Numbered from the stretch's first letter, positions 2,244 through 40,308 are shown. The stretch: 64,000 nucleotides of DNA from an uncultured Candidatus Rokubacteria bacterium (GCA_963826115.1 CAWGVS010000012.1:608001-672000); one strand, 5' to 3'. Program-made: numbers and translations. The notes: a model not told the origin generated them from the sequence alone.

Positions 2244-2446
2244 GAATCGGGGGGCGTCGCCGCCCCCGATCGAGTGGTGAGCCGTGAAGGGATCGAACCT
2301 TCAATCTACTGACTAAGAGGTGGTTCCGTGACCGAACTCCTACGCACTCAGGAGAGCTAAGACGACGAATCTTCTGCGCGGCCGCGTGATGGATGTTCGC
2401 CTGCATGTGGTGGAGTTCGGTGGAGCTTGGCACTGGCATGTCACCG
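2244..2446 (-). repeat. att-like unit 1: hairpin L1 + tRNA-Lys 3' half (2275-2319, 3 mismatches) + arm RA
   Basis: gaatcggggggcgtcgccgcccccgatcgag-tggtgagccgtgaagggatcgaaccttcaatctactgactaagag-gtggttcc...ggcatgtcacc. Confidence 0.95.
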
Positions 2447-2613
2447 GAGATTCGTTATCAGCCAGACTTTAGACATGAAATCCTGCGTCTTTGGTACTTG
2501 CCCGAGGCTGGCGCCACTCGGGTCCCACTGCCAGCCCACGGTGCTCGAGTTGTGAACGACGACACAGATCGGCCGCGGCATCATACGGATCGACCTACTC
2601 AGGTCGTCCACAC

Positions 2614-3597
2614 CTACACTCGTCGTGCTGTCTTCTTCCTTGGCCGAGTGGGGTGCGGCGCGTTTGCGCCTTCGACTCCCTGCTCTCGACGATACTGCCC
2701 CGGGGAGATCCCCATGACCCGTCGGAATACCTTGCCAAAGGCACTGTCGGATTCGTATCCGACCGCGGCGGCAATCGCCGCGAGCTTCGCCGCACGGCTC
2801 TCCCGCATCATGCTCGCGGCCCGCACCATCCGCCACTGCGTGAGGTGCTCAAGGGGCGTTTCCCCGACGAGCGCCCGGAATCGTGCGGCGAACGCCGAGC
2901 GAGACATCGATACCCTGTGCGCCAGGGTCGGCACGGTCCACCCGTGTCCGGGCTGAAGATGTATGAGTCGCAAGGCCTCGCCCATCTGCTCGTCGCCGAG
3001 CGCCCGAAGCCAGCTCGGGCTCCCGCTCAACACCGACGACTGAATGCGGCTGCGCATGGCTTGAACGAAGAGCACCTCGGCCAGCCGATCCACGATCGCG
3101 GCGGATCCGGGCAGGTCCTGCACGGTCTCGGCCGCGATGAACTGCAACGTGGACTGGAACCACGGCGTCGAGTGCGGCCCGGAGGCGGGCAGATGGAGGA
3201 TCGGCGGGAGGTGCTTGACGAGAAGGTCGCTCTCCGGTGACGCGAACGTGAAGCACCCGGCGACGACCGACGTCGGGGCGCCGGGACCCCCGTACCGGAT
3301 GAGCCGCGACTGTTGAAAGGCCTCGGGCGTCGTGACCTCCCGCACGGAGCGGACACGGATCCCGGGGTTATTTCGGAGTGAATAAGTTCGGGGGGCCGGC
3401 AGGAAGACAAAGTCACCCCCGACAAGCGGGGTGAGCGGGAGCTCGTCCACCCCAAGCACGCAGGCGCCGCGGGTCACGATGAGGCAGATGCCTTTGCCGG
3501 CGGGGAACTCGAGGCCGAACGGCGCGGTCAGCTCGATCCGGCCGTAGAGGTGCCCCTGCGTCCGGAGCAGCGCCATGATCTCAGCGAGAACATCCAT
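2614..3597 (-). CDS. AraC-family regulator with N-terminal cupin domain
   Basis: MDVLAEIM...; C-terminal WTVPTLAHRVSMSRSAFAARF and VGYESDSAFGKVFRRVMGISPGQYR double HTH. Confidence 0.93.
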   Translation of the reverse strand: MDVLAEIMALLRTQGHLYGRIELTAPFGLEFPAGKGICLIVTRGACVLGVDELPLTPLVGGDFVFLPAPRTYSLRNNPGIRVRSVREVTTPEAFQQSRLIRYGGPGAPTSVVAGCFTFASPESDLLVKHLPPILHLPASGPHSTPWFQSTLQFIAAETVQDLPGSAAIVDRLAEVLFVQAMRSRIQSSVLSGSPSWLRALGDEQMGEALRLIHLQPGHGWTVPTLAHRVSMSRSAFAARFRALVGETPLEHLTQWRMVRAASMMRESRAAKLAAIAAAVGYESDSAFGKVFRRVMGISPGQYRREQGVEGANAPHPTRPRKKTARRV

Positions 3598-3793
3598 CTT
3601 TCACCCGTCGATCTGGCGTATTGGACCAATAATAGCGCCTTCTAGACATGAATCGTCCATCGCGCATGGCGTAATCTGCCATCGATGAGACGCAGCATAG
3701 ACCGTGACACGCGCGAGGTCCATCCTTCGCCGACAGGCGACGGGGCGGCCGAGCCGACGGTCGGCGAAGCGCCCCGACAACCAGGAGGTCCGG

Positions 3794-4123
3794 ATGTCCA
3801 TGCATCTGCCACGGCCGATCGAGGTCTATTTCTCACCAGGCACGGCCCACGACACGGACGCCCTTGCCACATGCTTTGACGTGAACGCCACGGTCCGGGA
3901 TGAAGGCCGTACGTTCGAGGGTTTGGCTGCCATCACGGCGTGGAGGACCGAGACAAAGAAGCGATATCGCTACACGGTCGAGCCAGTCGAGGCAGTTCAG
4001 CGGGACGGCCAGACCGTCGTCACGGCGAGAGTCTCCGGTGACTTCCCCGGCAGCCCGGTCACTCTGACGTTCATCTTCAGGCTCGAGCGCGACCGCATCA
4101 CATCGCTGGAGATCCGGTCATGA
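3794..4123 (+). CDS. SnoaL/NTF2-like protein
   Basis: [20 protein letters not shown]...[18 protein letters not shown]. Confidence 0.85.
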
Positions 4124-4902
4124 GCGACCATCTCGAGCTGGATGGCCGCCGGGCGCTTGTGACTGGCGGCACCCAGGGGATCGGTCACGCGGTGGCGACG
4201 CGGCTACGCGAGGCCGGGGCGACGGTGCTCACGACCGCCCGCGCCCGGCACGATGACTCGTCCCCGGAAGATCGGTTCGTGGCGGCGGACCTGAGCACCG
4301 CCGACGGCTGCGCCACCGTCGCGGACGCCGTCCGGCAGCGGCTCGGCGGCATCGACATCATCGTCCATGTCGTTGGCGGCTCTTCGGCGCCTGGAGGCGG
4401 ATTCGCGGTCCTGAACGATGCCGAGTGGCAGCGCGCGCTCGATCTCAACCTCTTTCCGGCAGTCCGGCTCGACCGCGCGCTCCTGCCGGCGATGGTGCGC
4501 CAGGGCGCGGGCGTGATCGTCCATGTCACATCGATTCAACGGCAGTTGCCGCTGCCCGACGCCACCCTGGCCTATGCCGCGGCGAAGGCGGCGCTCGCCA
4601 ACTACAGCAAGGGCCTGTCAAAGGAGGTGGCCGCGAAAGGCATCCGCGTAGTCCGCGTCTCCCCGGGCTGGGTGGAAACCGACGCGGCCGTTGGCCTGGT
4701 CAAGAAGTTGGCGGCGAGCCAGGGGACGGACTACGAGGGGGCCCGTCAGGCGCTGATGGCGTCCCTCGGCGGGATCCCGATCGGGCGGCCAGCAAAGCCG
4801 TGGGAGGTCGCCGATCTCATCGCGTTCCTCGTGTCTCCCCGCGCCGCCGCGATCACCGGCACGGAGTACGTGATCGACGGGGGGACAGTACCGACCGCAT
4901 GA
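4120..4902 (+). CDS. Short-chain dehydrogenase/reductase
   Basis: [11 protein letters not shown]-binding motif and YAAAK catalytic motif. Confidence 0.95.
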
Positions 4903-4929
4903 GGGTGCCGGCCTGAGATGAGGCCAAAC

Positions 4930-5130
4930 GAATCGGGGGCGTCGCCGCCCCCCGATCGAGTGGTGAGCCGTGAAGGAATCGAACCTTCAATCTACTGATC
5001 AAGAGTCCCGACCGGGCCCTATCTGAGCCGACCGTAGAGGATCCATCCCCGCAAGATTTCGGCGTTGAGCCGTCGGACGAGAGCGTTCCAGTGCGTCCTG
5101 ATGCGGGTGCGTTGGTAGCCGGTCGGTAGC
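4930..5130 (-). repeat. att-like unit 2: hairpin L1 + tRNA-Lys 3' half (4961-5005, 2 mismatches) + arm RC
   Basis: Core match; the arm ends in a GGTAGC pair at 5114-5130. Confidence 0.9.
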
Positions 5131-5445
5131 CAACAACGGGCGCACGTAGGCGCCCGAACCTACTGATTGGCGATCCGTATCAGGATCATCCTGGCATACA
5201 AGTACGACACCCTCTCTTCAAGGCGGTTCGCGTCTGCATCCGAGCCCAAGGCGCTGCTGGCGATGTCGGATGTCAGCCGGCAGCCGCGCCTCGAGGAGTT
5301 GCCAAGCTACACACGAAAGCGCGCCGCCCGGCGGGATCTCTGGCAATCATGCTCAGCCGCATCCACGCTCGGGCTACAATGCGTTCGCCTGGGGGAGCTT
5401 CATGAGGGCCACTCGCATAGAGGCGGGCACGGCTTGGCCCGTCGA

Positions 5446-7119
5446 ATGATGACGGAGCGCCAGGGCTCCCTGGGCATCGGTTACCCGAGTCAGTCCTCGC
5501 GCCGGGGGTTTCTCCGTCTCTTCGGTTTGGCGGCGGGCGGGGCGGGCCTGGCCGCGTGGCAACCCGAGCCGGCCGCCGCCCAGCAGGGGTCCGCCGGGCC
5601 GCGAGCCGGCGGTGAACTGGTGGTGGCCACTTGGGACGAGCCGATCTCTCTCGACCCGGCCAACACTGCCGCAGCGGGTCTGAACCCGGTCAAACTGATC
5701 TTCGACCCGCTGGTCGTCCAGAGTGGAGACTTCACGCCCTACCCCGGAGTGGCGGAGTCATGGGAGGTGTCCGCGGATGGTAGGGCGTACACCTTCCGGT
5801 TGAAGAGGGACGTCAAGTTCCATGACGGCGCGCCTCTCGACGCCCACGCGGTCAAGTTCAGCCTGGACCGCGCTACCGGTCCCCAGGCAAAGGCGAACTT
5901 CACGATTTCGCTCGCTAGTGTCTACCAGACCACCGAGGTGATCGACGGTCTGACTGCGCGGGTCGTTCTGAAGCAACCGTATGCGGCGTTCTTCCATGCG
6001 CTGGCGGAGGGGTACTACTCGATCGTCTCACCCGATGCGGCGCGGAAGCACGCGATGGAGTTCGATCGTAACCCGGTCGGGAGCGGGCCGTACATCTTTC
6101 AAGAGTGGCTCTCAAAGAGTCATGTCACCCTCAAGAGAAACCCTGACTACGCTTGGGGGTCGATCCTCTTCAAGCACCAGGGGCCGGCGTACCCTGACCG
6201 GCTCACGTTCCGTCTGGTTCCGGAGAGCTCGACCCGTCTGGCCACGATCGAGACCGGCGAGGTCCACGTCGCGCAGGAGATCCCGCCGGAGGAGGTCGAA
6301 CGCCTCAAGAGGCATGCGGGGCTCCAGGTGTTGAGCCGGATCGCTCCCGGCACCTGCGCGCAGCTCATGCTCAACACCACTCAGCCGCCGGTGGACGACA
6401 TCAGGGTCCGCCAGGCCCTGGAGTACGCCGTCGACCAGGACGAGCTGTGCAAGGTGCTCTTCCGGGGTGCCCTCACCCCTGCCCGCACGCCGCTGGCGCC
6501 GGGCACCTTGGGCTACGAGGACAACCTCACCAGGTTCTATCGCACCGACCACGCGAAATCCCGTGCCCTGCTGGAAGCGGCCGGCTGGCGGCTCGGTAAC
6601 GACGGCATCCGCACCAGGCAGGGCCACCGCCTCGAGTTGTCGATCAACATCGTCAGCGCCAGCATCCAGACGCTTCCGATCAAGGTGGCCGAGGTGGTGC
6701 AAGCTCAGCTTCGCGAGGTGGGTATCTTCCTGGTCATCAAGCAGACCGACACCGCCGCCTTGTTCGCGATCCTGAGGGCGGGGAGCCAGCAGATGGTGCT
6801 CGGCTGGCGCGCCGGCTCGGACCCGGACGTCCTGCGCCCGCTCTTTCACTCCAGCTTCTTCGGAAAGTCTCCGGTCGCGCGGATCCGCTTCAAACACGAG
6901 CGGCTCGATCGGTTGCTGGAGCAAGGCACGCTCGAGCTCGACCGCACCAGGCGCCAGGCGATCTACAAAGAGGTTCAGGAGATCGCCCTCCAGAACGCCC
7001 TGGTCGTGCCGCTCTGGAACCGCCACGCCTTCGTAGCGGCGCGATCCGAGGTCCGAGATCTCGGCCTCGACCCGCGGGGAGACGTCAGCCTGTACGACGC
7101 CTGGCTCCCGAGGGGGTGA
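5446..7119 (+). CDS. ABC peptide/nickel-type substrate-binding protein (family 5), Tat signal
   Basis: SRRGFL twin-arginine signal; AESWEVSADGRAYTFRLKRDVKFHDG; PVGSGPY. Start chosen at ATG 5446 rather than the ORF-track start. Confidence 0.92.
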   Translation: MMTERQGSLGIGYPSQSSRRGFLRLFGLAAGGAGLAAWQPEPAAAQQGSAGPRAGGELVVATWDEPISLDPANTAAAGLNPVKLIFDPLVVQSGDFTPYPGVAESWEVSADGRAYTFRLKRDVKFHDGAPLDAHAVKFSLDRATGPQAKANFTISLASVYQTTEVIDGLTARVVLKQPYAAFFHALAEGYYSIVSPDAARKHAMEFDRNPVGSGPYIFQEWLSKSHVTLKRNPDYAWGSILFKHQGPAYPDRLTFRLVPESSTRLATIETGEVHVAQEIPPEEVERLKRHAGLQVLSRIAPGTCAQLMLNTTQPPVDDIRVRQALEYAVDQDELCKVLFRGALTPARTPLAPGTLGYEDNLTRFYRTDHAKSRALLEAAGWRLGNDGIRTRQGHRLELSINIVSASIQTLPIKVAEVVQAQLREVGIFLVIKQTDTAALFAILRAGSQQMVLGWRAGSDPDVLRPLFHSSFFGKSPVARIRFKHERLDRLLEQGTLELDRTRRQAIYKEVQEIALQNALVVPLWNRHAFVAARSEVRDLGLDPRGDVSLYDAWLPRG

Positions 7120-7270
7120 GCGTCCGCGAGGTTCTAGCGTCGAGTCGAGCGCCTCGTGGAGACACACGGCGAGCATCACGAGGCTGCCAGTCGACGAGAT
7201 TCCAACCGACACGAGCCGATGTGGCCCCCTTGGCGCTCTCCAACGACCGGCGATCGCGTCCGCTCGCGCC

Positions 7271-7597
7271 TTACGCAAGTGTCGCGAAGGCGCAGAGTCG
7301 CGCCTCCGTGACCGCGAGCATCCAGCCTTGCAGACTGACGGTGCGACCTTCTTCAAAATCGTCCCGCGTCCGAAGTCGCACGAATTCGCGGAGCTGTATC
7401 CGGCCCAGAGCCCGCAACCTTGCCGTGTCCTCACGCGAGCAGATCAGATCCAGGAGGACCCTCTCGTCTACCTCCTCGGGAACGCTCCGCAGGGACTCGG
7501 CGCCAACAACCCCGGCGCTCTCCCTTTCCTCGAGGAGGCTCAGGAATCTCGCCGCGAGACTTCTGCGGCTCTGCCCTTCAACCCATTCTGCCCACAC
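7271..7597 (-). CDS. Small hypothetical protein downstream of the GMC oxidoreductase (5' end possibly frameshifted)
   Basis: C-terminal RDDFEEGRTVSLQGWMLAVTEARLCA looks protein-like; same strand as the GMC gene. Confidence 0.6.
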   Translation of the reverse strand: MWAEWVEGQSRRSLAARFLSLLEERESAGVVGAESLRSVPEEVDERVLLDLICSREDTARLRALGRIQLREFVRLRTRDDFEEGRTVSLQGWMLAVTEARLCAFATLA

Positions 7598-7673
7598 GGG
7601 CCACGTCAGTTCCGGCAGTCCGCAGCTCAGGGTCGTCTCGGGAATCGGCGGCGCTGGTCGCGGATCTGCGTCC

Positions 7674-9266
7674 TCACTTCATAAGACCTGTTATGCGGTC
7701 GGCCAGCCGCAGTGCAAGGGCAACGATCGTGAGTGTCGGAGTCCCCGAGCCACTCGTCGGGAAAACGGAGCTTCCGGCGACGAAGAGATTCCGCATCCCG
7801 TGGACTCGGCAATGTCGGTCCACGACGCCTTGCTCGGGGTCGTCGTGCATGCGCGTAGTTCCCATGTGATGCCAAGATCCGAGCGTCTCGGCGGGCCACG
7901 TGGCCTCGTTGTCGTCCAACAATACTTCCACCCGGCCGAGTCCGGCACGGCCGAGTTCCCTCCCGATAACTTCCAGGGCTTGCCTTGCGCTCAGCTTGTC
8001 GATCGCGCTCAGCCGCCAGTGCACCGCAACCCGCCGCTGCCCTAGCCGGTCACGCTCCATGCCTAGCGTCACCCGGCTCTCGGGATTTGGGGCCGGATCG
8101 ATCCTCGTGATCAGGTTGATGCGGTCGACGGGCGCCGCCTGCCGACCGCGCGCCCACCAGTAGGCCGCCACCGTCACGTCGTCGAGGTCGCGGATGACGT
8201 TCCCGACGTGCTTCCCGAAGCTGTCCGGCACTTCCCCTTGGCGAAGCTTTCCCAAGAGGTACTTGATGGACGCGACCCCCCTGGAGCTCGACGCCCTGAC
8301 GTATGATTCATCGTATCCCGGGTCGAGTCTCACCTGCACATCGACGACTCTCAAGCGACGCTGGGCGGGCGGCGACAGGGCTAGAGATCCCCTGATGCTC
8401 GTGTTGGCCACGACATGAAATCGGTAGAACTGCGGCATCAAAGAGTCAGCCGGGCGAAAGAGGCCACCGACGAAGGTGGGGTGATCAGCGAAAAACCTCC
8501 CGACGAGATCGTTGCCGTTGCCGAGACCGGTCGGTTGGATCCGATTCGACAGGAGGAGCAGACGGGCGTTCTCGATGCCACCGGCCGCCAGCACGAACAC
8601 CTTCGCCGCCACCAAGAAGCTGGTGCCCGTGAGACAGGCCACGCGGAGATGGGTGACGGTCCTCGCGGTCTCTTCGGTTTCGATTTCGGTCACGTTGGCA
8701 TTGAGGTACGTCGTGACGTTCTCCGCTCGGACAACCTCGTCCCGGTAGGTCTCGCCGAATCTCTTGAGCGGGTCGGGCGCTTCCTGCGTGACCGCCGTGA
8801 TCACGGCGTCTGCGTTCACTGACAGCGGTGCGTATCGATCGAGCGTCTGCCAATAGCTCGCCTCCCAGTGGGAGGAGCTGAGCTGACAGATGGATCGGGC
8901 GCGCTCGTAGAAGGGTTCCAGCTCGGCCTTGCGGAACGGCCACCCACTGTGGGGAATCCAGTCGCGGGCCTCGAAGTCGAGATCAGTAAGCGGTCGGCAT
9001 GCGCCATACCAGTGGTTCGTCGTCCCCCCGAAACAACGCAAGCGCGCCGTCCGGAGGGGGAGGGACGGAAGTCCGGTACTCTTGCCATCGGCGAGCGACT
9101 GGGTGTCTTCGTCGGGTCTGAATCCGCCGCTCTCCAGAAGACACACGCGAAACGGCCGACCGGCGAACTCGCGGGTCAGCGTAATCCCAGCCGCGCCGGC
9201 GCCGATGACGCAGACGTCCGTCTGAACGGTGGACCTGTCCGGTACGGAGCGGGCGTCAACGACCAC
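7674..9266 (-). CDS. GMC-family FAD oxidoreductase
   Basis: VCVIGAGAAG; LAAGGIENARLLL; HHMGTTRM; NLFVAGSSVFPT...PTLTIVALALRLAD. Confidence 0.94.
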   Translation of the reverse strand: MVVDARSVPDRSTVQTDVCVIGAGAAGITLTREFAGRPFRVCLLESGGFRPDEDTQSLADGKSTGLPSLPLRTARLRCFGGTTNHWYGACRPLTDLDFEARDWIPHSGWPFRKAELEPFYERARSICQLSSSHWEASYWQTLDRYAPLSVNADAVITAVTQEAPDPLKRFGETYRDEVVRAENVTTYLNANVTEIETEETARTVTHLRVACLTGTSFLVAAKVFVLAAGGIENARLLLLSNRIQPTGLGNGNDLVGRFFADHPTFVGGLFRPADSLMPQFYRFHVVANTSIRGSLALSPPAQRRLRVVDVQVRLDPGYDESYVRASSSRGVASIKYLLGKLRQGEVPDSFGKHVGNVIRDLDDVTVAAYWWARGRQAAPVDRINLITRIDPAPNPESRVTLGMERDRLGQRRVAVHWRLSAIDKLSARQALEVIGRELGRAGLGRVEVLLDDNEATWPAETLGSWHHMGTTRMHDDPEQGVVDRHCRVHGMRNLFVAGSSVFPTSGSGTPTLTIVALALRLADRITGLMK

Positions 9267-9285
9267 TGGGCCGTCGCTCCGTCAC

Positions 9286-10212
9286 TCAGCGAGGCTCTAG
9301 CGTCGGGTCGAGCGCCTCGCGAAGGCCGTCTCCCAGGGCGTTGATCGAGAGCACCGTCAGCAGGATCATCACTCCGGGAAACGTCGAGACCCACCAGCCG
9401 CTGCGCAGGTACTCCCGGCCGCTGCTCACCATGGCACCCCACTCCGGCGTGGGCGGCTGAACGCCCAAACCGAGGAACGAGAGGCCCGCGGCGACCAGGA
9501 TCGCCGCCGCGACACCGAGCGTCGCGATCGCGATCACCGGAGTCAACGCGTTCGGAAGCACGTGGACCAACATCACTCGCGCATCGCGCCCGCCGGTTGC
9601 GCGGGCCGCTTCCACGTGGAGGCTGCTCTTGGCAGAGAGCACGCTCGCCCGTACAACCCGCGTGTAGTGCGGAACGTACGAGATGCCCACGGCAACCATC
9701 ACGCTTGTCAGACCAGGCCCGAGTATGGCGATCACGGCCAACGCGAGGAGAATGCCGGGAAAGGCGAGCAGCACGTCCATCACACGCATGATGAGCATGT
9801 CACGCCATCCGCCGTGGAACCCGGCCAGCACCCCGAGGACGAGCCCACATGTCAACGAGATCCCGACTGACATGAGCCCGATCCGGAGGGAGAGTCGGGC
9901 GCCGTAGAGTACACGACTGAAGACATCACGGCCGAGGTGGTCACTGCCGAAGATCTGCTGCGCGCTCGGTGGTTCCAGGACCCTCGCCGAGTCGATCTTG
10001 ATGGGATCGCGGGGCGCGACCAGCGGCGCCAGAGTCGCCAAGACCGCGACAAGGCTCAGGACCGCGCCACTCGCGAGCGCGACCCGGTCCCGTCGGAGGC
10101 GCCGAAGAGCCTCCAGCCAGGGGCCCCGGGGCGCCCGCGGCGCTCGGCAACAGAGGGCCGCCGCGGCCGGGCCTGCGGGCGCAGGCCATCCGGCACGACC
10201 TCGCTCACTCAT
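9286..10212 (-). CDS. ABC peptide permease (DppC-like)
   Basis: GSDHLGRDVFSRVLYGAR; EAARATG; LSFLGLGVQPPTPEWG; NALGDGLREALDP. Confidence 0.93.
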   Translation of the reverse strand: MSERGRAGWPAPAGPAAAALCCRAPRAPRGPWLEALRRLRRDRVALASGAVLSLVAVLATLAPLVAPRDPIKIDSARVLEPPSAQQIFGSDHLGRDVFSRVLYGARLSLRIGLMSVGISLTCGLVLGVLAGFHGGWRDMLIMRVMDVLLAFPGILLALAVIAILGPGLTSVMVAVGISYVPHYTRVVRASVLSAKSSLHVEAARATGGRDARVMLVHVLPNALTPVIAIATLGVAAAILVAAGLSFLGLGVQPPTPEWGAMVSSGREYLRSGWWVSTFPGVMILLTVLSINALGDGLREALDPTLEPR

Positions 10213-11146: not shown

Positions 11147-11461
11147 CGGGGCGGGCGCGGCAAAGCCACAGCTCTCACTGGTCCCACTGGGCGGCGCGAC
11201 GACGTCCCCCCCAAGGCGTGGTCACGCTTCAGAAGGCCCTGAGCACTCACGCTGCGGCGGGCGGGCGCTGGCCGTTGCGGGCGTGACCTAGCCGTTACGG
11301 TGTAGACCCGTCCTCGCCGCCGCCCACCCGGATCGCTGCTCCCGCGGCTCTGACCGAACCCATCGCGCCGGCACCCATACCTGGTTGACCTGGAGGCGAC
11401 GTGTGTCGCACGATGCGCGCGTTGGGCGACCCCGGCCGAACACGCGGGCGACGGAGATCCC

Positions 11462-13168: not shown

Positions 13169-13274
13169 AGGTTTCTCCCTCCCACCGCCCGAGCGTGCGC
13201 ATCAGCGCCACCGCGTTCGAGGTGCGCCCCCGCTGACGCGTAGGTGGCAAGACGCATCGCTTCCGGCCGCTCTT

Positions 13275-13484: not shown

Positions 13485-13556
13485 CCTCGCCCCTCCCTCT
13501 CACTTGAGGAGCATCTCACGATTCCGCTTCGCCGGGTCCCCGAGGCCCAAGAAGAC

Positions 13557-27814: not shown

Positions 27815-27917
27815 CGCGCGGGGGCCTTGGCGTCGCTTGGGCCAACTTCGCGGTGCAACCAAAGGCGCTTCGCGCCGCGGCTGACGGCAAGCGTTGATGT
27901 GACTCCCGTCCGTCTAG

Positions 27918-30285: not shown

Positions 30286-30334
30286 GGGAAAACGAGCTGA
30301 ATCGGAAACTGAAAGGCTAGGGGAAGGAAGGTTC

Positions 30335-30985: not shown

Positions 30986-32533
30986 TCCGCTGGCTCCCCC
31001 GGCTGGTTGCCCGCCTGCCACTGAGCGTCCACGGGAAGCTCCTGTTCGCCTTCCTGGCGATCGTCGGCCTGCTGATCGCGGTCGGCGCGGTGGGCCTCCA
31101 GGTGCTGAGCGGCGTGAACCGGCGCGCCGAGGACATGGTCAAGCTTCAGCGCAAGATCGCCGCCTACCGGCAGCTCCAGCACGACACGACGAGCCAGCTC
31201 TACGGCGTGTCCTCGGCCCTCCTCGTTCCCGACGACCGGACCCTCGAGGCGACGCTCCGCCAGCTGAACCAGTTCGGGTACGATCTCGACCGGCTCGCCT
31301 TCGTCGCCCAGGACGAGGTCGAGCTCTTCGGGCGCGTGCGCGAGGACTACGAGGAGTTCATCAAGATCGTCACCCAGGTGATCGAGCTGATCCGGGCCGG
31401 GAAGGGGCCGGCCGGCCGCGAGCTCCAGCTGAGCCGGGCCGGCCCTCTGGCCGACCGCCTCGAGCGGCTGACGAACGAGCTGGTGAACAAGGCCGAGGCG
31501 GACATGGTGGCCAGCATCGAGGCCAGCCAGGACGCTTACGTGACGTCCCAGCGGGTGGTCGTCGGGTTCGCGGTTGGAAGCATCTTGCTTGCGCTGGTCC
31601 TCGGCTACGGCATCTCGTGGTCCGTCATCGGGCCGGTGCAGCAGATGGACGTCCGGCTCCGCGAGATCGCCGGGGGCGACTTCGCCAAGCGCGTGGAGAT
31701 CTCGAACCGGGACGAGCTGGGCGCGCTGGCGGCGAACCTGAACCGGATGAGCGACGAGCTGGGCCGTGCTCTACCGCCAGCTCGCGGCGGCCAACCAGCA
31801 CAAGTCCGAGTTCCTGGCCAACATGTCCCACGAGCTCCGGACGCCGCTCAACGCGATCATCGGCTTCTCCGAGGTCCTCCACGAGCGGATGTTCGGCGAG
31901 CTCAACGAGAAGCAGGCCGAGTACATCCAGGACATCCTCGCCTCCGGCCGCCATCTGCTCTCGCTGATCAACGACATCCTGGATCTCTCGAAGGTGGAGG
32001 CGGGGCGGATGGAGCTCGACGTCGCGCCGTTCGACCTGCCGACCGCGCTCGAGAGCGCCGTGACCCTGGTCAAGGAGCGCGCCGTCCGCCGCGGGCTGAG
32101 CCTCGACCTCACCGTGGACTCCGGGCTGGGAACGCTCGTCGGCGACGAGCGGAAGGTCAAGCAGATCTTGCTGAATCTCCTCTCGAACGCGGTGAAGTTC
32201 ACGCCCGACGGAGGACGCGTCACGCTGATGGCGACGCCGGCCGGTGGGCCTTCGGGGGCTCCCGAGATGGTCGAGATCGCGGTCAGCGACACCGGACTCG
32301 GGATCGCCCCAGCCGACCAGGCGACGATCTTCGAGGAGTTCCGCCAGGTCGGGAGCGGATCACAGAAGCAAGAGGGAACGGGTCTCGGGCTCACGCTGAC
32401 GAAGAAGTTCGTCGAGCTCCACGGCGGACACATCTGGGTCTCGAGCGAGGTGGGAAAGGGCTCGACGTTCACGTTCACCCTGCCGAGGAAGCCAGGGCGC
32501 CCGCGTGAAGGCGCCCACGGGCCGAGCCTTTGA
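30982..32533 (+). pseudogene. HAMP-domain sensor histidine kinase; frameshift near 31768
   Basis: Two TMs and a HAMP domain in one frame; FLANMSHELRTPLN, NAVKFT, DTGLGI and GTGLGL in the next. Confidence 0.9.
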
Positions 32534-32648
32534 GGTGACAAGGACGGTGACCTGCTTGCCGTCGCCCTCTGGGGCTGACTTCGAGGTGAGGATGCTATCG
32601 GTACGGTGTTTCGCCGTGCAGGCCCGTGACGAGGCGAATCTCGGCCCG
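32533..32648 (-). pseudogene. Degenerate fragment of the same cyclase family as 22712-26089
   Basis: TAKHRTDSILTSKSAPEGDGKQVTVL versus TPKHLAEKILTSKSALEGERKQVTVL. Confidence 0.8.
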
Positions 32649-32744
32649 AATTGATGCGGCGCGGCGCACTGCCAAGAACACTCATGGCCAGGCGGCTCGG
32701 CCGCACGATGAGCAGACCGATTCAAACTCCCCGTGCTAAAGCAC

Positions 32745-32960
32745 GAATCGGAGGGCGTTGCCGCCCCCCGATCGAGTGGTGAGCCGTGAAGGAATCGAAC
32801 CTTCAACCTACTGATTAAGAGTCCCAACCGGCCGCAACGCACGGCACGCCATCGGCAGCTATCCGCACGTCAGATTAAGGAAGCGCCGCGAGGCGACCTG
32901 TTCGCGCCTCACGGTACCTTCGCGCGAGTTGGAACCGTCTGGAACCAGAATCCGACGCCA
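32745..32960 (-). repeat. att-like unit 8: L1 + tRNA-Lys 3' half (32777-32821, exact) + arm RB
   Basis: Core match; tcccaaccggccgcaacgcac; GGAACC pair at 32931-32946. Confidence 0.93.
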
Positions 32961-33088
32961 GGTGCGCCCACAAGTCATTTCGCACGCGAGACCGTGCCCA
33001 GCGCGAGCTCCATTGCCAGGATTCACATCGATCGGTCGCCGCATCCTGCACTGGGATCAATTCCGACTCAGTTCGTATTGGGGGGAAC

Positions 33089-33634
33089 ATGAGAACCTCC
33101 GCCTTGGTCTTGTGCATCATTCTTTCGGGTTGTGCTGCGAGTCCCGAGAAGCTCGACTCGGTTGGGAAGACCGAGGCGGCACGAATGGTGCCGCCCCTAA
33201 GGCGCTTTTCCAGCTACGCGAGTTATGAACTCAAGCCGATGGCACTAAGCCCGGCCGTTCAAAGCGCGCCGGAAAAGGTGAAGGCTGCGGGAGAGCTCGA
33301 GAATACGCTACGGGCCAAGCTTCAGCCTCTGCTTGAGCAGTGGAATGCGGCATCCCGCGATCGGTCCGGCACCCTCGTCATCGAGCCCCAACTTGCGTCC
33401 CTGAGGATTGTCAGCGGCGGCGCGAGGTTCTGGGCCGGAGCATTGGCGGGAGAGTCGAGCATTGACATGGACCTTGCCGTTACCGACCAAGGCACGGGTC
33501 AGCAAATTGCGAAGCCACGCATCACCCTCAAGGCCAACGCCATGGCCGGAGGATGGTCGGTCGGCAAGAGCGACCAGAACCTGCTCGACTACATTGCGAG
33601 CATCGCGCACGCATACATGACGATGAACTACTGA
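33089..33634 (+). CDS. Lipoprotein (DUF4410-like), sole gene of cassette 8
   Basis: Lipobox LSGC; SGGARFWAGALAG motif. Confidence 0.85.
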   Translation: MRTSALVLCIILSGCAASPEKLDSVGKTEAARMVPPLRRFSSYASYELKPMALSPAVQSAPEKVKAAGELENTLRAKLQPLLEQWNAASRDRSGTLVIEPQLASLRIVSGGARFWAGALAGESSIDMDLAVTDQGTGQQIAKPRITLKANAMAGGWSVGKSDQNLLDYIASIAHAYMTMNY

Positions 33635-33747
33635 GACCAGAGCCCCGGTGGCCCCCGCCAGGGACTGAGCGCGTGCGGGGGCGCTCAACCGCTCCGCTCG
33701 GTACAAGAACCCTGCCGAAATAGGCTGAGTCTCCGGCCCCCCCCAAC

Positions 33748-33950
33748 GAATCGGGGGGCGTCGCCGCCCCCCGATCGAGTGGTGAGCCGTGAAGGAATCG
33801 AACCTTGAACCTGCTGATTAAGAGGTGGTTCCGGGCCCGAGCTCCCACGCACGCAGACGATCTAAGCGTATGTATTTCCTGCGAGGCCGCCTGACCGATG
33901 GTCGTCTGAGTGCGGCTTAGTCCGGTGGAATTTAGCACTGGCATGTCACC
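33748..33950 (-). repeat. att-like unit 9: L1 + tRNA-Lys 3' half (33780-33824, 2 mismatches) + arm RA
   Basis: Direct sequence match. Confidence 0.95.
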
Positions 33951-34143
33951 GGCGATTCATCACCAGCCAGACCTTAGACGTAAGGTCCTCCGTTTTGGTA
34001 CTTGCCCAAGGCCGGCGCCACTCGGGTCCCATTGCCAGCCCACGGTGCTCCAGTTGTGAACGACGACACAGATCGACGGCGGCACTGAACGGGCCGGGGG
34101 GCAACACTGCCCGCCCTTTTTGTGTTCCGTCATTGATCCCGAC

Positions 34144-35580
34144 TCACGCGCTTGGCCTGATGTTCTGGTTCAGTCGAAACAGGTTTGCCGGATCGTATCT
34201 GGTCTTCAAAGCGACGAGGCGCTTGTAGTTCGCGGCGCCGTAGCTGTTGCGCACCAACTCCTCGCCCTCCTCGCCAAGGCCCGCGAAGTTGAGATAGGCG
34301 CGGCCGCCGGAATGATGCTTCATGTCGCCCCAGAAGGCGCGCGACCAGGACAGGTTGCGCTGGTCGTCGGCCGGATTTATCCAAATCGAATCGATGCTCA
34401 GCATGTAGCGCATATTGCGCTCGCCGAAGGCGGTCGCGTTGCCAGCCACTCGACCGACGGCGCCGCCCAGATACCACACCGAGCAGAGCGTCAGGTCGGA
34501 GGGGCGATCAGCGGCGTGTGGCGCGATCTCGTCGATCATCCGGTCGTCTAGGCCATTGAGATAGAGCGATTTGAAGTAGGCGCGATGAACGCCCTTAGGG
34601 AACAGCCCATCATAGAGCTTCTGCACGCTGCAGTAGGGCATCCGGCCGCTGAAATCCAGCACCGGCGTGGCCAACTCGCGCAGAGGTCTGACGGCTTGTT
34701 CGCCCTCGTCCGCGGGGCCCGCCCACACCCCGGCCAGGGCCAAGACCCGCGCGCCCCAGGTCTCCTCGGGATACTCCGGATCGTTGGGGATGGTGGAGAA
34801 TTCGACCAGCGTTCCACCGATCTCGTCGGGTGCGGTTGCCATGAAGTCGCGCCAGCCCTTCATGACCTGGGTGGCGTCCTCGGCCCGGTAGATGGCACCC
34901 AGGAACATCACCTCCGGCCCGACGGGATGCAGCTGGAACTCGAACGAGGTGACGACGCCAAAATTGCCGCCGCCCCCGCGCACGGCCCAGAAGAGATCGC
35001 TGTTCTCGGCCGCGCTGGCGGTGCGAAGCTGGCCGTCCGCGGTGACGATGTCGACCGACAGGACATTGTCGAGGCTGAGGCCATACTTGCCGCGCAGCCA
35101 GCCGAGGCCGCCGGCGAGTGTCAGCCCGCCGACGCCCGTCGCCGAAATGACGCCGCCCGGCGTCGCCAGACCGTGGACTTGCGCCTCGCGGTCGAAATCG
35201 CCCCAGGTCGCGCCGCCCTGCACCCATGCCCGCCGCGCTGTGGAATCGACCCGGACCGCGTTCATCCGCGACAGATCGATCATGAGCCCCCCGTCGCACG
35301 AACCGCTGCCCGCTGAGTTGTGGCCCCCGCCCCGCACTGCAGTCAGAAGCCCGTTCTCACGCGCGGCATTGACCGCGTGAACGATGTCGGCGGTGCCGCT
35401 GCAGCGGGCGATGAGCGCCGGCTTCTTGTCGAACATGCCGTTCCAGATGAGCCGCGCCCTGTCATAGCCGTCGTCACCCGGTTGGAGCAGTTCGCCGCGC
35501 AGATTGGCGCGCAACGCCTTTGCCGCCGCTTCAAGACTGTGTCCGGACGACGCGCCCGCAGTGGCTTGTCGGTGTGTCAT
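34144..35580 (-). CDS. FAD-linked oxidoreductase (BBE/VAO family)
   Basis: RGGGH, DLFWAVRGGGGNFGVVT, YLNF and KTRYDPANLF motifs. Confidence 0.95.
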   Translation of the reverse strand: MTHRQATAGASSGHSLEAAAKALRANLRGELLQPGDDGYDRARLIWNGMFDKKPALIARCSGTADIVHAVNAARENGLLTAVRGGGHNSAGSGSCDGGLMIDLSRMNAVRVDSTARRAWVQGGATWGDFDREAQVHGLATPGGVISATGVGGLTLAGGLGWLRGKYGLSLDNVLSVDIVTADGQLRTASAAENSDLFWAVRGGGGNFGVVTSFEFQLHPVGPEVMFLGAIYRAEDATQVMKGWRDFMATAPDEIGGTLVEFSTIPNDPEYPEETWGARVLALAGVWAGPADEGEQAVRPLRELATPVLDFSGRMPYCSVQKLYDGLFPKGVHRAYFKSLYLNGLDDRMIDEIAPHAADRPSDLTLCSVWYLGGAVGRVAGNATAFGERNMRYMLSIDSIWINPADDQRNLSWSRAFWGDMKHHSGGRAYLNFAGLGEEGEELVRNSYGAANYKRLVALKTRYDPANLFRLNQNIRPSA

Positions 35581-35735
35581 GCTTTGCCCCCTTGCTCTCC
35601 GCGCAGCAACGCAGGCCAGCGCGGCACGTTCGAAATCAGGACGGTCCAAGACTAATGGTTGAGCCTGGACCTTCGTAAGAGGCAGAATGGACACAACCGG
35701 GGCAAATGTGACACCGCGCTGATCTGGGAGGATCA

Positions 35736-36866
35736 ATGGCCAGATCCGAAGCGAAGTTGCCGCGCATCTGTCTGCTCGCCGCGGCGGAAACCTCTCCCTC
35801 GGTGCTCTATGGCCTCTATGACGTCTTGAGTACGGCAGGGCCGGTCTACTCAGAACTGACCAGCGGGAATCCGGCGGAGAAGATGCTCGACGTCAGGATC
35901 GTGGCCGCCACCATCGATCCGTTCCGCTGCTACGGCAGCGTGATGGTCGAACCGCATGATGCCATCGACCGGCTACATGAAACCGATGTCGCGATCGTGT
36001 GCGATATGTATACGCCGATCGACACGCCGCCGCGCGGGCGCTACCGGCGAGAGATCGAGTGGCTGAACCGAATCTACGCCAAGGGTGCCATCCTCGGTTC
36101 CGTCTGCTCGGGCTCCCTGGTGCTCGCCGAGGCGGGCCTTCTGGACGGACTGCAGGCAGCCGGACATTGGGCCTATCGCGAATTGTTTCGTGAACACTAT
36201 CCGAAGGTGAAGTTTCGGGTGGATTCGATCTTAAGTGTTGCTGGTGAGCAAGACCGGATCGTGACGGCGGGAGGTGTGACCGCCTGGCAGGAACTGGCGC
36301 TCTACCTGATTGCCCGGCTTTGCGGGCCCCAGCATGCGATCAGAACGGCCAAGATCCACATGCTGTCGGATCACTCGGACGGCCAGTTACCCTTTGCCGT
36401 GATCACGCTGCGTGTGGGGAACACGGACGCCGTCATCGCCGACTGCCAACACTGGATAACTGAACATTACGCGTGCCAGAATCCTGTGACCAGCATGATT
36501 GCTCACTCGGGCCTCAAGCCCCGCACCTTCGCCCGGCGGTTTCTGGCGGCGACCGGCTTTCATCCGGTGGACTATGTGCACGCGGTTCGCATCGAGGAGG
36601 CGAAACAACGCCTGGAAACCGATACCGTCAGCGTCGAGGAAATCGGCCACCTCGTGGGCTATGAGGACCCCACCTTCTTTCGCCGCCTGTTCAAGCGCAA
36701 GGTCGGCCTGACCCTTGCGGCATACCGGCGAAAATTCTCCAAGATCGCCACAATCGGACATTCGGGGACGCAATACTCAATTCCGACGCCTCGACGGCGG
36801 GATTTCGGGATGACGGCCCACGGGATCAAGCTGCCCACCGCCCGGGTCGTCCGGGGAACCCCGTGA
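35736..36866 (+). CDS. GlxA-family (DJ-1/PfpI + AraC) regulator
   Basis: SVCSGSLVLAEAGLLDG; RTFARRF; VGYEDPTFFRRLFKR. Confidence 0.93.
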   Translation: MARSEAKLPRICLLAAAETSPSVLYGLYDVLSTAGPVYSELTSGNPAEKMLDVRIVAATIDPFRCYGSVMVEPHDAIDRLHETDVAIVCDMYTPIDTPPRGRYRREIEWLNRIYAKGAILGSVCSGSLVLAEAGLLDGLQAAGHWAYRELFREHYPKVKFRVDSILSVAGEQDRIVTAGGVTAWQELALYLIARLCGPQHAIRTAKIHMLSDHSDGQLPFAVITLRVGNTDAVIADCQHWITEHYACQNPVTSMIAHSGLKPRTFARRFLAATGFHPVDYVHAVRIEEAKQRLETDTVSVEEIGHLVGYEDPTFFRRLFKRKVGLTLAAYRRKFSKIATIGHSGTQYSIPTPRRRDFGMTAHGIKLPTARVVRGTP

Positions 36867-37006
36867 ACCAAGCGGAACGAATTCCTACCTCTAGCTCGCC
36901 CCGCTTGCCCATCCGTTGCGGGCAGGGCGCGCTCCTGATCTCAGACTCGGACAGAACTCGGACAAAATAGCGAGGGCGGCCCGGAGGCCGCCCTCTAACC
37001 ACCCGG

Positions 37007-37530
37007 ATTTCGGCTTCGTCGCCGACAACCGCAAGGCGATCTCGGCCAAGTACGGGCTGATCAGCCCGCAGTCGATGGCCGCGATCCAGCGGGCGCTGCT
37101 CACCTGGACGCGAAGGGCGGCGAAGAGCTGTTCGGCGAGCCGGCGCTCGACCTGACCGACCTGATGCGCACGGATCTCAGCGGCACGCGGGATCGTCAAC
37201 GTCCTGGCGGCCGACCAGCTCGATCCTGAAGCCGCGGCTCTACTCGAGCTTTCTGCTGTGGCTGCTGTCGGAGCTGTTCGAGAACGCTGCCGGAAGTCGG
37301 CGATCTCGATAAGCCGAAGCTCGTGTTCTTCTTTGACGAGGCTCATCTGCTGTTCGACGACGCGCCCGCGGCGCTGCGGCAGCGGGTCGAGCAGGTCGTG
37401 CGGATCATCCGGTCGAAGGGGGTCGGCGTGTACTTCTGCTCGCAGTTCCCGGACGACGTGCCGAACGAGATCCTGGGCCAGCTCGGCAACCGGATGCAGC
37501 ACGCGCTGCGCGCCTATACCCCGCGCGACC
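37007..37530 (+). pseudogene. Internal fragment of a DUF853/HerA-like ATPase with several frameshifts
   Basis: [43 protein letters not shown] and [17 protein letters not shown] spread across frames. Confidence 0.88.
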
Positions 37531-38015
37531 TGAGCTTCTCGGCCCGGGACACTGTCGCCGTCCTGGTCTTTCCGGACGGTCGGCCGCTCGCCCTCGCGCT
37601 AGAGAATCAGGAGTAGGTCGGCCGGCTGGCGCTCGAAATGCTGGCGTCCGATAGCGACGAGGCCGGCCCCTCAGAAGCGAAGCAAGGTTGGCTCGAGGCG
37701 GGGAGGCGGCCGCGTCTGTCCGTGACGTTCACGCCCCCGCGCTCGGTACGCTTCCAGTTCAGCACGGCGGGCCCAGCGGCGGAACAAGACGTTCAGGTCG
37801 ACGAGATCATCACGCGAATCGTCGGCGAGTGGCCGGACTACATCCCGCCATGTGCCGCCCTTGACGGGGCCTGTCCCGGACGCGTACCGTCGGGTGACGC
37901 TGGCCGGAGCGGGCTTCATCCGCCAGCCCCCTTGCGGCCGAGAACGAGCTTTATGTCGACTGTCCTCCGGCCGGTCGTATGCATTCCACGGCTGCTGTGA
38001 ACGGCTCTGGAGAAA

Positions 38016-38180
38016 ATGGAAGGACAAACCCCAGAGTGCCGAGCCGTAAGGCCCCGCAGTCTCAAGACCATCCGCCGCCCGACGACGCCCTGCCCTCGCT
38101 GCGGCGCGCCGGTGCGCACGATAAAGCTCCCGCTGAGCTCGCTCCGGCGGCTCGACTGGCGGCTCTTCGGCGAGGCGTGA
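38016..38180 (+). CDS. Small ORF (54 aa) with a CPRCG motif, absent from the ORF track
   Basis: GGAG RBS; MEGQTPECRAVRPRSLKTIRRPTTPCPRCGAPVRTIKLPLSSLRRLDWRLFGEA*; co-oriented with the next two genes. Confidence 0.4.
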   Translation: MEGQTPECRAVRPRSLKTIRRPTTPCPRCGAPVRTIKLPLSSLRRLDWRLFGEA

Positions 38181-38208
38181 GACTCAGCGTGCAGGGAGAG
38201 TAACCTCC

Positions 38209-38853
38209 ATGGAACTGCTCATTGTGGCGATCGCTGTGATCTGTGTCGTTGTGATCGTCATCATCGCCGTCGTCGCCCCGACTCAGCCAGCCAATCACCC
38301 GGCGCGGCGAGAGGCAATCCGGACGCGGCAAGAGGCAATCGGCGAGGAGGCGAGGCATTTCTTCGCCGACGCGAGCAAGGCGCTCTGCCTCCCTCCGGTG
38401 CAGACGCACATCGTCCTCGCCCCTGGTGAGGTCGCCATCCGCCAGGAGTCCGTACAGCTTCACGAGTCGCGCGCCGTACGCCTCTATGGCGGCGTCGGAA
38501 CCCGGATCGGGAAGATCTATCTCGGCGGCGGGACATCCAGCTCCTACCAGACCATCAAGCCGATCGACACGGGAACGCTGCTGCTGACCACCGAGCGGCT
38601 TGTCTTCGATGGGGGAAAGGAAAATCGCATCGTCAAGGCGAAAGAGATCCTTTCGGTCCAGCCCTCCGAGGATGCGATCGAGGTGAGTACGTCACGTCGG
38701 CAGAAGAGTCAGGTCTATACCGTCAGCAACCCGCTGATCTGGGCGACGCTCATCAAGACCGTGGCCGGCGGAAACGTCGAGGCGCTCAAGCAGGCCATCG
38801 CGAATGGAGCCGCGAGGCAGGGCGGATCGCTGCCACCTGGGCAGGGAACATAG
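38209..38853 (+). CDS. Hypothetical protein with N-terminal membrane anchor
   Basis: Hydrophobic N-terminus; IDTGTLLLTTERLVFDG (PH-like by inference). Confidence 0.8.
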   Translation: MELLIVAIAVICVVVIVIIAVVAPTQPANHPARREAIRTRQEAIGEEARHFFADASKALCLPPVQTHIVLAPGEVAIRQESVQLHESRAVRLYGGVGTRIGKIYLGGGTSSSYQTIKPIDTGTLLLTTERLVFDGGKENRIVKAKEILSVQPSEDAIEVSTSRRQKSQVYTVSNPLIWATLIKTVAGGNVEALKQAIANGAARQGGSLPPGQGT

Positions 38854-38856
38854 AGT

Positions 38857-39351
38857 ATGCATGGCCCCGTCCCGCGTATGACCGAGCGGGAGTGGATGGC
38901 TATTGTCGATGCCCTCTATGGATTGCCGGTCAGCGCCAGTCACCGCAGCATCGCCTCCGGCCTGTCCCGTCGGCTCGTCGAAGCGGACGCGGCAAGCGGG
39001 ATCGGGGCCAAGTGGGGAGTGAACGCTCGAGCACTCGCCCAGCGGCTCCAGGCGGCTTCCATGGAGGAGGCGCTGAACCTCGTGCGGATCGTCCGCGATC
39101 TCTGGAAGAACCCAAGCGGCGACTGGTCTGTGGCCTTCTACGATCATGGCGTCCGATTTGAACGAGAGCCTCGACAAGAGGTGCGAGCGACCGCCTTTCC
39201 CACCGACGAGCAAATGTCCATGCTGTTCGACTTGATGCGCGCAGACCGCCGGGAGGAGTTCGACTCGCTTTGCGAGTCGCTCGGCGTGCTGAATCCCGCT
39301 GCACTCTGGGCGGGACCGCGGCACGGCGGGCGTCCCTCCAAGGTGCCGTAA
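38857..39351 (+). CDS. Hypothetical protein
   Basis: ORF starts 3 nt after the previous stop; protein-like composition. Confidence 0.65.
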   Translation: MHGPVPRMTEREWMAIVDALYGLPVSASHRSIASGLSRRLVEADAASGIGAKWGVNARALAQRLQAASMEEALNLVRIVRDLWKNPSGDWSVAFYDHGVRFEREPRQEVRATAFPTDEQMSMLFDLMRADRREEFDSLCESLGVLNPAALWAGPRHGGRPSKVP

Positions 39352-39462
39352 GGCCCTACTCTCCTGGTGCAGTGAAGAATGAGCATGGCCGTCCTCGGGG
39401 CTCCTGGCGGACGAGATCACGCCTCGCCGCCGGGCGCTGGGATGGGCTGCAACTGCTTGCCC

Positions 39463-39496
39463 AAAAAAGAATCGGGGGGCGTTGCCGCCCCCCGAT
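39463..39496 (-). terminator. Intrinsic terminator after tRNA-Lys (prototype of hairpin L1)
   Basis: Minus strand ATCGGGGGGCG-GCAA-CGCCCCCCGAT followed by TCTTTTTT. Confidence 0.9.
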
Positions 39497-39500
39497 CGAG

Positions 39501-39576
39501 TGGTGAGCCGTGAAGGAATCGAACCTTCAACCTACTGATTAAGAGTCAGTTGCTCTACCAATTGAGCTAACGGCTC
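39501..39576 (-). tRNA. tRNA-Lys(CTT)
   Basis: GAGCCGT/ACGGCTC acceptor stem, CTGA-CT CTT AA-TCAG anticodon arm, GTTCGATT T-loop, encoded CCA. Confidence 0.98.
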
Positions 39577-40284: not shown

Positions 40285-40308
40285 TACCCGGGACCGGTCC
40301 GGCGGGGG

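Follow-up and report, generated by a model that had tools for sequence, protein, structure and literature searches.

Tandem accretion of mobile elements at attachment (att) sites has been described in Streptococcus for the ICESt1/ICESt3 family (Pavlovic 2004; Bellanger 2011; both cited through PMC5704250), and the accretion model, in the part of PMC5704250 drawn on here, involves cis-mobilizable elements (CIMEs) that keep attL and attR and are without integration or transfer genes. Here we describe a long row of integrase-less, att-bounded units in an uncultured Candidatus Rokubacteria bacterium (genome G000; GCA_963826115.1), where they stand beside the gene for tRNA-Lys(CTT). The stretch analysed (64,000 nucleotides, G000:C12:608001-672000, contig CAWGVS010000012.1; herein the window, from whose first letter positions are counted unless a contig is named) had earlier been read, from its letters alone, as a tRNA-anchored array of gene cassettes (herein the original prediction). 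By our analysis the array probably grew by accretion: helper integrases would have delivered non-autonomous, CIME-like units to tRNA-Lys(CTT) repeatedly and site-specifically, in at least 13 insertions.

Recombinase-less gene cassettes are stockpiled at one site in mobile and chromosomal integrons, pdif modules and psi-SCC elements. Islands of Dehalococcoides, in the sections of PMC3146451 used here, stand in tandem downstream of the single-copy transfer-messenger RNA gene ssrA, carry direct repeats (20 bp) of its 3′ end and vary in number from strain to strain; 15 are without an integration module and were suggested to be CIMEs, and 16 keep a serine-recombinase module. The tycheposon islands of Prochlorococcus, as presented in the portion of bioRxiv 10.1101/2020.12.28.424599 cited here, result from successive tRNA-targeted integration that leaves partial tRNAs and degraded integrases behind; they are mostly scattered remnants, with one or two intact elements per genome. 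Islander, according to the passages taken from PMC4383910, calls a tandem only if each member has an integrase and met tandems of three or more only 4 times in 2168 genomes; because of that rule the array described here would be invisible to it. A literature search returned no description of such arrays in Rokubacteria, although closer parallels may exist in the supplements to the papers on tycheposons and on Dehalococcoides.

Repeated attachment sites at the tRNA-Lys(CTT) gene

The intact gene lies at 39501-39576 on the - strand (ARAGORN, with which Rfam agrees; Rfam reports four tRNAs and nothing else in the window). It is the sole tRNA-Lys(CTT) among the 64 tRNAs of G000, so that each insertion must rebuild the tRNA gene. 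Its 3′ 45 bases (39501-39545 in the intact gene; herein the core) recur in the window in 10 copies, all on the + strand and with 0-3 mismatches (search threshold ≤3; 0 expected in 100 shuffles), starting at 2275, 4961, 13587, 15986, 17264, 21691, 26360, 32777, 33780, and 39501. These are the positions and the single orientation that the original prediction had listed, and its core-to-core spacings (2686, 8626, 2399, 1278, 4427, 4669, 6417, 1003, and 5721 bp) are reproduced exactly. It had begun the array at 2244 with nine units; nine is correct for the window, but a whole-contig search places four more cores to the left (C12 581387, 593851, 598056, and 599700) and none on the opposite strand of C12. 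The array thus totals 14 sites and 13 units over ~66 kb, of which the window shows the right-hand nine, and is embedded in an 880-kb contig with ordinary flanks. All 13 displaced 3′ fragments of the tRNA gene lie on the same strand as the 3′ half of the gene, in the direct orientation and with the canonical end point by which Islander-type islands are recognized.

At 14/14 sites of G000 the anticodon loop (+ strand: TTAAGAG) is precisely where identity with the tRNA stops. This end point had been foreseen, together with two copies that extend by 2 bp; three do so in the window (4961, 15986, and 32777, which share the further bases TC). The repeat had been given as 45 bp, which holds for the core; the whole repeat is longer, with a P′ side to the left of the core and a P arm to its right. 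At 8/10 window sites the core is preceded by a GC-rich hairpin (H1), followed on the tRNA strand by a T run; H1 stands at ~39469-39500 beside the intact tRNA and is, as predicted from its sequence, the intrinsic terminator of the tRNA. The remaining two sites (21691 and 26360) have a different hairpin, H2, preceded by TGGTAGCA twice. This double TGGTAGCA is present on the H2 P′ side in 9 sites, and 8/9 H2 P′ sides retain only 63-73 bp, up to the repeats.

P arms were compared at 46 sites in six stretches of four genomes: G000 and its congeners G003, G008, and G014. The right flanks cluster into armA (21), armB (11), armC (4), and armD (2), with the intact tRNA 5′ half at 3 sites and 5 singletons. 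For armA, armB, and armC, core-anchored similarity stops at ~127-135 bp (36 sites), with unrelated DNA beyond. Each of these three ends in direct repeats: GGAGTTCGG-T-GGAGTTTGG in armA, which also has an inverted copy near the core, TGGAACC-N4-TGGAACC in armB, and TTCTCGGACA twice in armC. The distal repeats are among the best-conserved arm columns (armA: 21 sequences, four species), which suggests selection for protein binding; the repeats would bind protein, and the crossover point would fall in the loop. With all its parts a site measures ~210-240 bp (P′ side, core, and P arm), comparable to a lambda-type attP, and since all three parts are present the internal junctions are complete, often hybrid, attP-like sites. 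Every unit is flanked by cores with P arm and P′ side, so that both att sites are retained, as in CIMEs. At least three P-arm families and three P′-side types imply several integrase specificities, and the shared att arms of the original prediction are not borne out. This anatomy is what heterobivalent tyrosine integrases are predicted to leave when they integrate repeatedly at the anticodon loop.

The armA motif was found in three Rokubacteria metagenome-assembled genomes (MAGs) and two metagenome contigs only, and in no viral contig. As an RNA element armA was rejected in favour of protein-binding repeats: Rfam returned nothing, RNAalifold on 12 copies gave a covariation term of 0.12, and its consensus fold has compensatory change in 2/28 pairs. 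In armA (window 17382 onward, and further copies) an ATG-started open frame, MFACV..., lies in the distal part of the arm, continues into the cargo of several units, and is probably due to chance in GC-rich DNA. At three sites of G014:C7 (L017/L018; cores 16152, 22337, and 23902, counted on the reverse complement of the stretch) the anticodon loop is lengthened by 4-5 bases at the inferred crossover; faulty strand exchange could have left these bases as footprints, or they could be mutations that inactivate the site.

The array is graded along its length. The leftmost cores have the most mismatches and mutated loops, the change being gradual, and the loop is unmutated at the six rightmost sites, which begin at 15986 and extend to the tRNA. 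GC content is 0.64-0.69 in the window units and 0.64-0.73 in those left of the window, against a genome mean of 0.72 and 0.74-0.76 in the right flank; the older part thus comes closer to the mean. The two gradients are compatible with insertion beside the tRNA and increasing age to the left.

Unit content, shared units and the cognate integrase family

The units of the window, with the site at its left end and the integrase remnant, are:

1-2274: right end of a 10.6-kb unit starting at C12:599700 (armC); CoA-transferase gene 741-2126 (- strand)
2244-2454 (+ strand): att site; H1, core 2275-2319 (3 mismatches, loop CTAAGAG), armA P arm of ~130 bp
2275-4960: 2.7-kb unit; AraC/cupin regulator 2614-3597 (- strand), SnoaL-like protein 3704-4123 (+ strand), short-chain dehydrogenase 4120-4902 (+ strand)
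4961-13586: 8.6-kb unit; peptide/nickel-type solute-binding protein, GMC oxidoreductase, two ABC permeases, AMP-binding ligase; core at 4961 with 2 mismatches, P arm of singleton type
13587-15985: 2.4-kb single-gene unit; DUF2079 membrane protein 14134-15594 (- strand); armA; loop mutated to TTGAGAG
15986-17263: 1.3-kb single-gene unit; predicted membrane protein of 260 aa, 16363-17145 (+ strand); armB
17264-21690: 4.4-kb unit; ArsR/MarR regulator, APH-family phosphotransferase, class-III aminotransferase, integrase remnant; armA; P′ side H2
21404-21703 (+ strand): 3′ remnant of a tyrosine integrase, ~100 codons, reading towards the core, with its stop codon inside the core at 21691
21691-26359: 4.7-kb unit; DinB/mycothiol-transferase-like protein, 1171-aa adenylate-cyclase/AAA/TPR regulator; armA; P′ side H2
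26360-32776: 6.4-kb unit; two NMT1-like binding proteins, SCO1/SenC, sensor histidine kinase in two frames
32777-33779: 1.0-kb single-gene unit; DUF4410 lipoprotein 33089-33634 (+ strand); armB
33780-39500: 5.7-kb unit adjoining the tRNA, without integrase; BBE/FAD oxidase, AraC/DJ-1 regulator, HerA_C fragment 37230-37616, open reading frames (ORFs) 38209-38853 and 38857-39351; diverged armA

Three units of the window hold a single gene (13587-15985, 15986-17263, and 32777-33779), one more than had been counted earlier; 6/9 are multi-gene, four of those with regulator genes of their own, and genes lie on both strands. The cargo is compact and non-mobile in kind (metabolic, transport, and regulatory), and that of the units left of the window is similar. 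No two window units have interior similarity, in agreement with the claim of unrelated cargo. Pfam scans of the unit ORFs in the window and the left extension revealed no transfer genes or other mobility-gene debris. The HerA_C fragment, a 128-aa frame that matches profile positions 247-329 of 502 only, is possibly debris of a transfer or defence module. The histidine kinase is divided between a 4HB and HAMP frame (30982-~31800) and a HisKA and HATPase frame (31766-32533) by a frameshift or a sequencing error. The two ORFs adjoining the tRNA were considered as integrase remnants and rejected: Pfam returned nothing for them at E ≤0.1, and neither the other arrays nor the rest of the genome contains a relative. 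Few genomes of the order have homologues of the cargo of the two smallest units (3/183 and 5/183 genomes, G000 included; 34-46% identity); one homologue lies beside tRNA-Arg(TCT), and the others showed no att-like sequence.

A search of 41 genomes for the core pattern gave a match in 19. With ≤3 mismatches allowed, G000 has 13 cores, G003 12, G008 16, and G014 7, and all others 0-2, many of these others being fragmented assemblies. The three congeners carry similar arrays, and when their content is compared, as the original prediction had proposed, it is mostly different. The six stretches of the four genomes comprise 40 core-bounded units of 572-32570 bp, 8 of them under 2 kb. CoA-transferase genes stand directly left of two cores of G000 (741-2126 and C12:579730-581142) and are paralogues only 52% identical. 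The far-left one has 88% orthologues in G014 (partial, a 175-aa match), left of the leftmost core, and in G004 (L035, G004:C14), right of a core with armA; this differing placement indicates that the left array boundary differs between species.

Some units are shared between organisms. Unit 2275-4960 aligns with G003 over 2692 bp at 95.2%, where core DNA in the right flank of G000 and G003 is 78-81% identical (core-DNA identity refers to short stretches of G000 vs G003 and of G000 vs G008 only); the G003 copy has a different unit before it and stops at its hairpin, with no core. A 1.5-kb, one-gene unit is 97% identical between G003 (unit 9) and G014 (unit 5), and G008 unit 3 matches G014 unit 4 at 93% over 5.6 kb, both with differing neighbours. 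Unit 26360-32776 recurs over 4368 bp at 91% on a metagenome contig, behind an att site with another integrase remnant. Four units are thus integrase-less in two organisms at 91-97% identity, with differing neighbours checked for three pairs. Such identity, far above that of core DNA in the calibrated pairs, indicates transfer without an integrase, either as such or inside composites; the helper would have left afterwards or never have belonged to the transferred unit.

The absence of an intact integrase from every unit, also part of the original prediction, was confirmed. A six-frame PF00589 search of G000, G003, G008, and G014 listed 79 matches, of which a single one, the fragment at 21404-21568 of the window, falls within an array. 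Intact integrases are found in 0/40 units of the four genomes (0/13 in G000) and remnants in 2/40. No PF00589 match lies within 60 kb of the tRNA-Lys(CTT) core in 7 further congeners. In relatives, + strand ORFs of 335-409 aa that end just left of cores were examined as integrases and rejected as shadow frames of GC-rich DNA with no Pfam match.

The remnant nevertheless identifies a cognate integrase family. The TGGTAGCA direct repeats fall in its last codons, and it has a match in 53/183 genomes of the order. At the 14 loci fetched besides the window's own, 10 have a tRNA-Lys gene (CTT or TTT), and in further genera of the order intact relatives adjoin tRNA-Lys genes. G021 has an open frame of 444 aa with PF00589 and a SAM-like N-terminal domain, 76% identical, which converges on tRNA-Lys(CTT) and has the same TGGTAGCA repeats in its last codons. 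Given its relatives at tRNA-Lys and the shared TGGTAGCA, the remnant belongs to a tRNA-Lys-specific integrase family, with H2 as the P′ side of that family. When the full-length cognate integrase was searched by tblastn against the arrays and the tRNA-Lys loci of relatives, it matched only the 107-aa remnant, a ~57-aa piece beside the G003 tRNA, and short stretches along its tRNA-overlapping tail; in other genera of the family it matched a remnant (G019) and a full-length gene of 41% identity beside tRNA-Lys(CTT) (G020). Two other full-length homologues have no tRNA beside them, and phage and plasmid collections gave relatives below 31% identity only, among the matches listed. An intact homologue of the integrase that the original prediction had placed at 21413-21703 was sought elsewhere in G000; tblastn found no close one, and the array in G000 is therefore probably static at present.

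Integrase fragments occur at further tRNA genes of G000. Two PF00589 fragments lie on the same contig, ~43 kb and ~145 kb to the right (C12:690923-691063 and C12:792359-792733), both near tRNA genes. A 133-aa remnant frame stands ~130 bases from tRNA-Arg(TCT), of which a matching 3′-half copy lies ~6 kb away, and a 172-aa remnant frame with one TAG stands beside tRNA-Ala(GGC), for which there is a displaced 3′ fragment. In G000 the decay of integrases at tRNA sites seems to be general. A second array of the same kind occupies C6:5892-47770, with tRNA-Thr(CGT) at C6:5892 and four direct 3′-half copies (31625, 37275, 38612, and 47731) that start at the anticodon loop and have conserved flanks on both sides; no PF00589 match is listed on C6. 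Just right of the tRNA-Lys array, a 42-base 3′-half copy of tRNA-Arg(TCG) (97.6%; window 40309-40350) lies 2.3 kb left of its gene (42678-42754) and suggests a small unit at a third tRNA. This fragment is spanned by a - strand ORF (39817-41301) with an IS481-type helix-turn-helix (residues 156-254) and a DinB-like part, which may not be one gene.

Origin of the array

In the accretion model that we favour, integrative units would have entered the anticodon loop of tRNA-Lys(CTT) in succession, each by site-specific recombination. The attP of the incoming circle would comprise a P′ side (terminator hairpin plus tRNA 3′ half), a crossover in the 7-base loop, and a ~130-bp P arm with short direct repeats at its end. 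With the tRNA 3′ half carried on the P′ side, the tRNA would be rebuilt at each insertion, and every new insertion would displace the older units leftwards. The units would rely on the tRNA-Lys-specific tyrosine integrases of helper elements, and we infer a helper route of one of two kinds: helpers may deliver units as composites and then excise alone, or may act in trans. Trans mobilization, cis delivery with a helper (accretion), and RecA-mediated exchange at the 77- to ~210-bp repeats fit equally well.

Several points weigh against helper-borne accretion. No helper element joining an armA, armB, or armC site to an integrase was found, and the contigs with intact cognate integrases stop within a few kb, short of the P arm of an autonomous element (the G021 contig is 5.3 kb in total, that of G065 ends 3.4 kb past the gene, and the G020 gene lies at a contig end). 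The repeats of P′ side and P arm differ in sequence, where a single arm-binding domain predicts otherwise. Pairing of P arm and P′ side within units, assigned by a simple classifier with 3 G000 units left unclassed, is weakly non-random and suggestive only, related units not being independent: H2 ends occur in 7/21 armA/armD units vs 0/9 armB units (Fisher p 0.07), and H3 ends in 4/9 armB units vs 2/19 armA units (Fisher p 0.06). The broken genes (integrase remnant, HerA fragment, and two-frame kinase) fit decay in situ. All genomes are MAGs, each from a different species of the collection. Two contigs of G008, C3 (50287-62559) and C4 (L009-L016), are 99-99.6% identical over 9.7 kb and differ in arrangement: the unit adjoining the tRNA in C3 runs, in C4, straight into the interior of the unit before it, and this joint does not fall at a core; the conflict reflects strain variation, rearrangement, or a chimeric contig. 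Short-read Logan contigs (best 0.40 of sampled words) compared with 13501-33500 gave pieces of 150-730 bases that match several units, some without difference; none bridges a core, and the listed joints have short sides and unrelated letters, so that these contigs are silent on junctions, excision, and assembly. With short-read contigs as the material, no excised product, circular junction, or presence/absence polymorphism was seen.

A bolder form of the model is possible, and we put it forward tentatively: a true tRNA-att cassette system in which minimal cassettes (some of one gene and ~1 kb, with a 130-bp P arm and a 35-200-bp P′ end) would be moved in trans between species by transient helpers with tRNA-Lys or tRNA-Thr integrases. 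It would be an analogue of integrons built from heterobivalent phage-type integrases, with several specificities using one tRNA dock.

That each unit is instead the leftover of a separate autonomous island (a phage, an integrative and conjugative element, or an integrative and mobilizable element), its mobility genes deleted here and the unit never moved without an integrase, is rather unlikely. Such decay in situ is part of the published three-step model, in the section of PMC5704250 cited, and the remnant retained in one unit, the shorter one beside the G003 tRNA, the HerA_C fragment, and the two-frame kinase all speak for it, as do the remnants at tRNA-Ala(GGC) and tRNA-Arg(TCT), which make integrase loss common in G000. 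Random deletion should, however, leave ragged ends, whereas the P arms stop sharply at ~130 bp in 36 sites and the H2 P′ sides at 63-73 bp in eight of nine. Only two of 40 units have remnants and none has an intact integrase, and the scanned ORFs show no other mobility-gene debris. The four units that are integrase-less in two organisms would require the same deletion twice or transfer after the loss.

Homologous recombination would dispense with an integrase altogether: the repeats of hairpin, core, and arm (77 to ~210 bp) would serve as portable homology for RecA crossover after DNA uptake, with the arms carried along. The repeats are long enough for RecA, G000 has no cognate integrase, the joint between the two G008 contigs lies outside a core, and the shared unit in G003 stops at its hairpin with no core. 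We consider this improbable as the origin of the array, because identity ends exactly at the anticodon loop at every G000 site, as expected of an integrase crossover, conservation within the arms peaks at their repeats (21 sequences, four species), several arm families coexist without having been homogenized, and the cognate integrase family is tied to tRNA-Lys. An assembly artefact, in which strain alternatives of one or a few islands were chained at a shared repeat, is very improbable: the MAG has 5.3% contamination, G008 has its conflicting arrangements, and no short-read contig bridges a core, but arrays occur in four separate MAGs and an unrelated metagenome contig, the 880-kb contig has ordinary flanks and window units that share no interior similarity, core mismatches and GC change gradually along the array, and a second array without integrase matches stands at tRNA-Thr(CGT) on another contig.

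Read as accretion, the array shows how far the process can reach: ~66 kb of accessory metabolism, transport, and regulation at one tRNA with no resident recombinase, a pattern shared by several species in an uncultured phylum from soil. Such arrays would escape pipelines that look for an integrase per island, and the non-autonomous share of island DNA may therefore be underestimated. The sharp arm boundaries map a putative minimal functional attP for this integrase family. Were the units mobilized in trans, they would represent a second, independent cassette-exchange system beside integrons, and the att arms and the cognate tRNA-Lys integrase would form a defined, testable pair.

Comparison with known systems

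The original prediction had likened the array to an integron platform, a likeness that does not survive: the array is not an integron. For intI, attI, and Pc, the only array match of the six-frame PF00589 search is a 3′ fragment inside a unit, and a platform integrase is absent. Each site consists of a tRNA 3′ half, a hairpin, and a 130-bp arm and is not an attC. Integron cassettes are mostly promoterless single ORFs in one orientation, whereas here genes lie on both strands and multi-gene units carry regulators. Compared with integrons, pdif modules, and psi-SCC elements, the array has neither attI/attC nor a common promoter logic, and its att sites are putatively of the heterobivalent type, not folded attC or Xer sites.

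Among tRNA-directed islands, those of Islander, as characterized in the cited part of PMC4383910, resemble the array in their displaced direct 3′ fragment of the tRNA gene and in an attP centred on the anticodon; each is required to carry its own integrase, whereas here none of the 13 units has an intact one, nor any of the 40 in four genomes. Of published cases, the tycheposon islands and the ssrA islands of Dehalococcoides come nearest. The tycheposon islands, so far as the preprint portion used describes them, are alike in that new arrivals push older elements inward, and differ from the dense, regular row of complete att sites without replication or integrase hallmark genes seen here. The ssrA islands of Dehalococcoides, from the cited sections, are likewise tandem islands at a single-copy gene with direct repeats of its 3′ end; here, in contrast, no unit out of 40 has an integrase, the repeat is a 45-bp core plus arms, and the integrase type is tyrosine.

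In kind the units are like CIMEs. Pfam scans of the unit ORFs and the six-frame PF00589 search found no integration or transfer genes in the units beyond the integrase remnants, and, like the CIMEs of the ICESt1/ICESt3 family as outlined in the part of PMC5704250 cited, the units keep their att sites, stand in tandem at the 3′ end of a target gene, and have accretion as their proposed route. They differ from that family in that 13 stand in a row (40 in four genomes) without an intact integrase or resident helper, in that units go down to one gene (1.0-1.3 kb), in several att-arm families on one tRNA, and in their uncultured Rokubacteria host. The array is best read as an extreme variant of tandem accretion of non-autonomous att-bounded units; it is unusual in its length and regularity, in having no resident integrase in 40 units, in its one-gene cassettes, and in the several arm families that meet at one tRNA.

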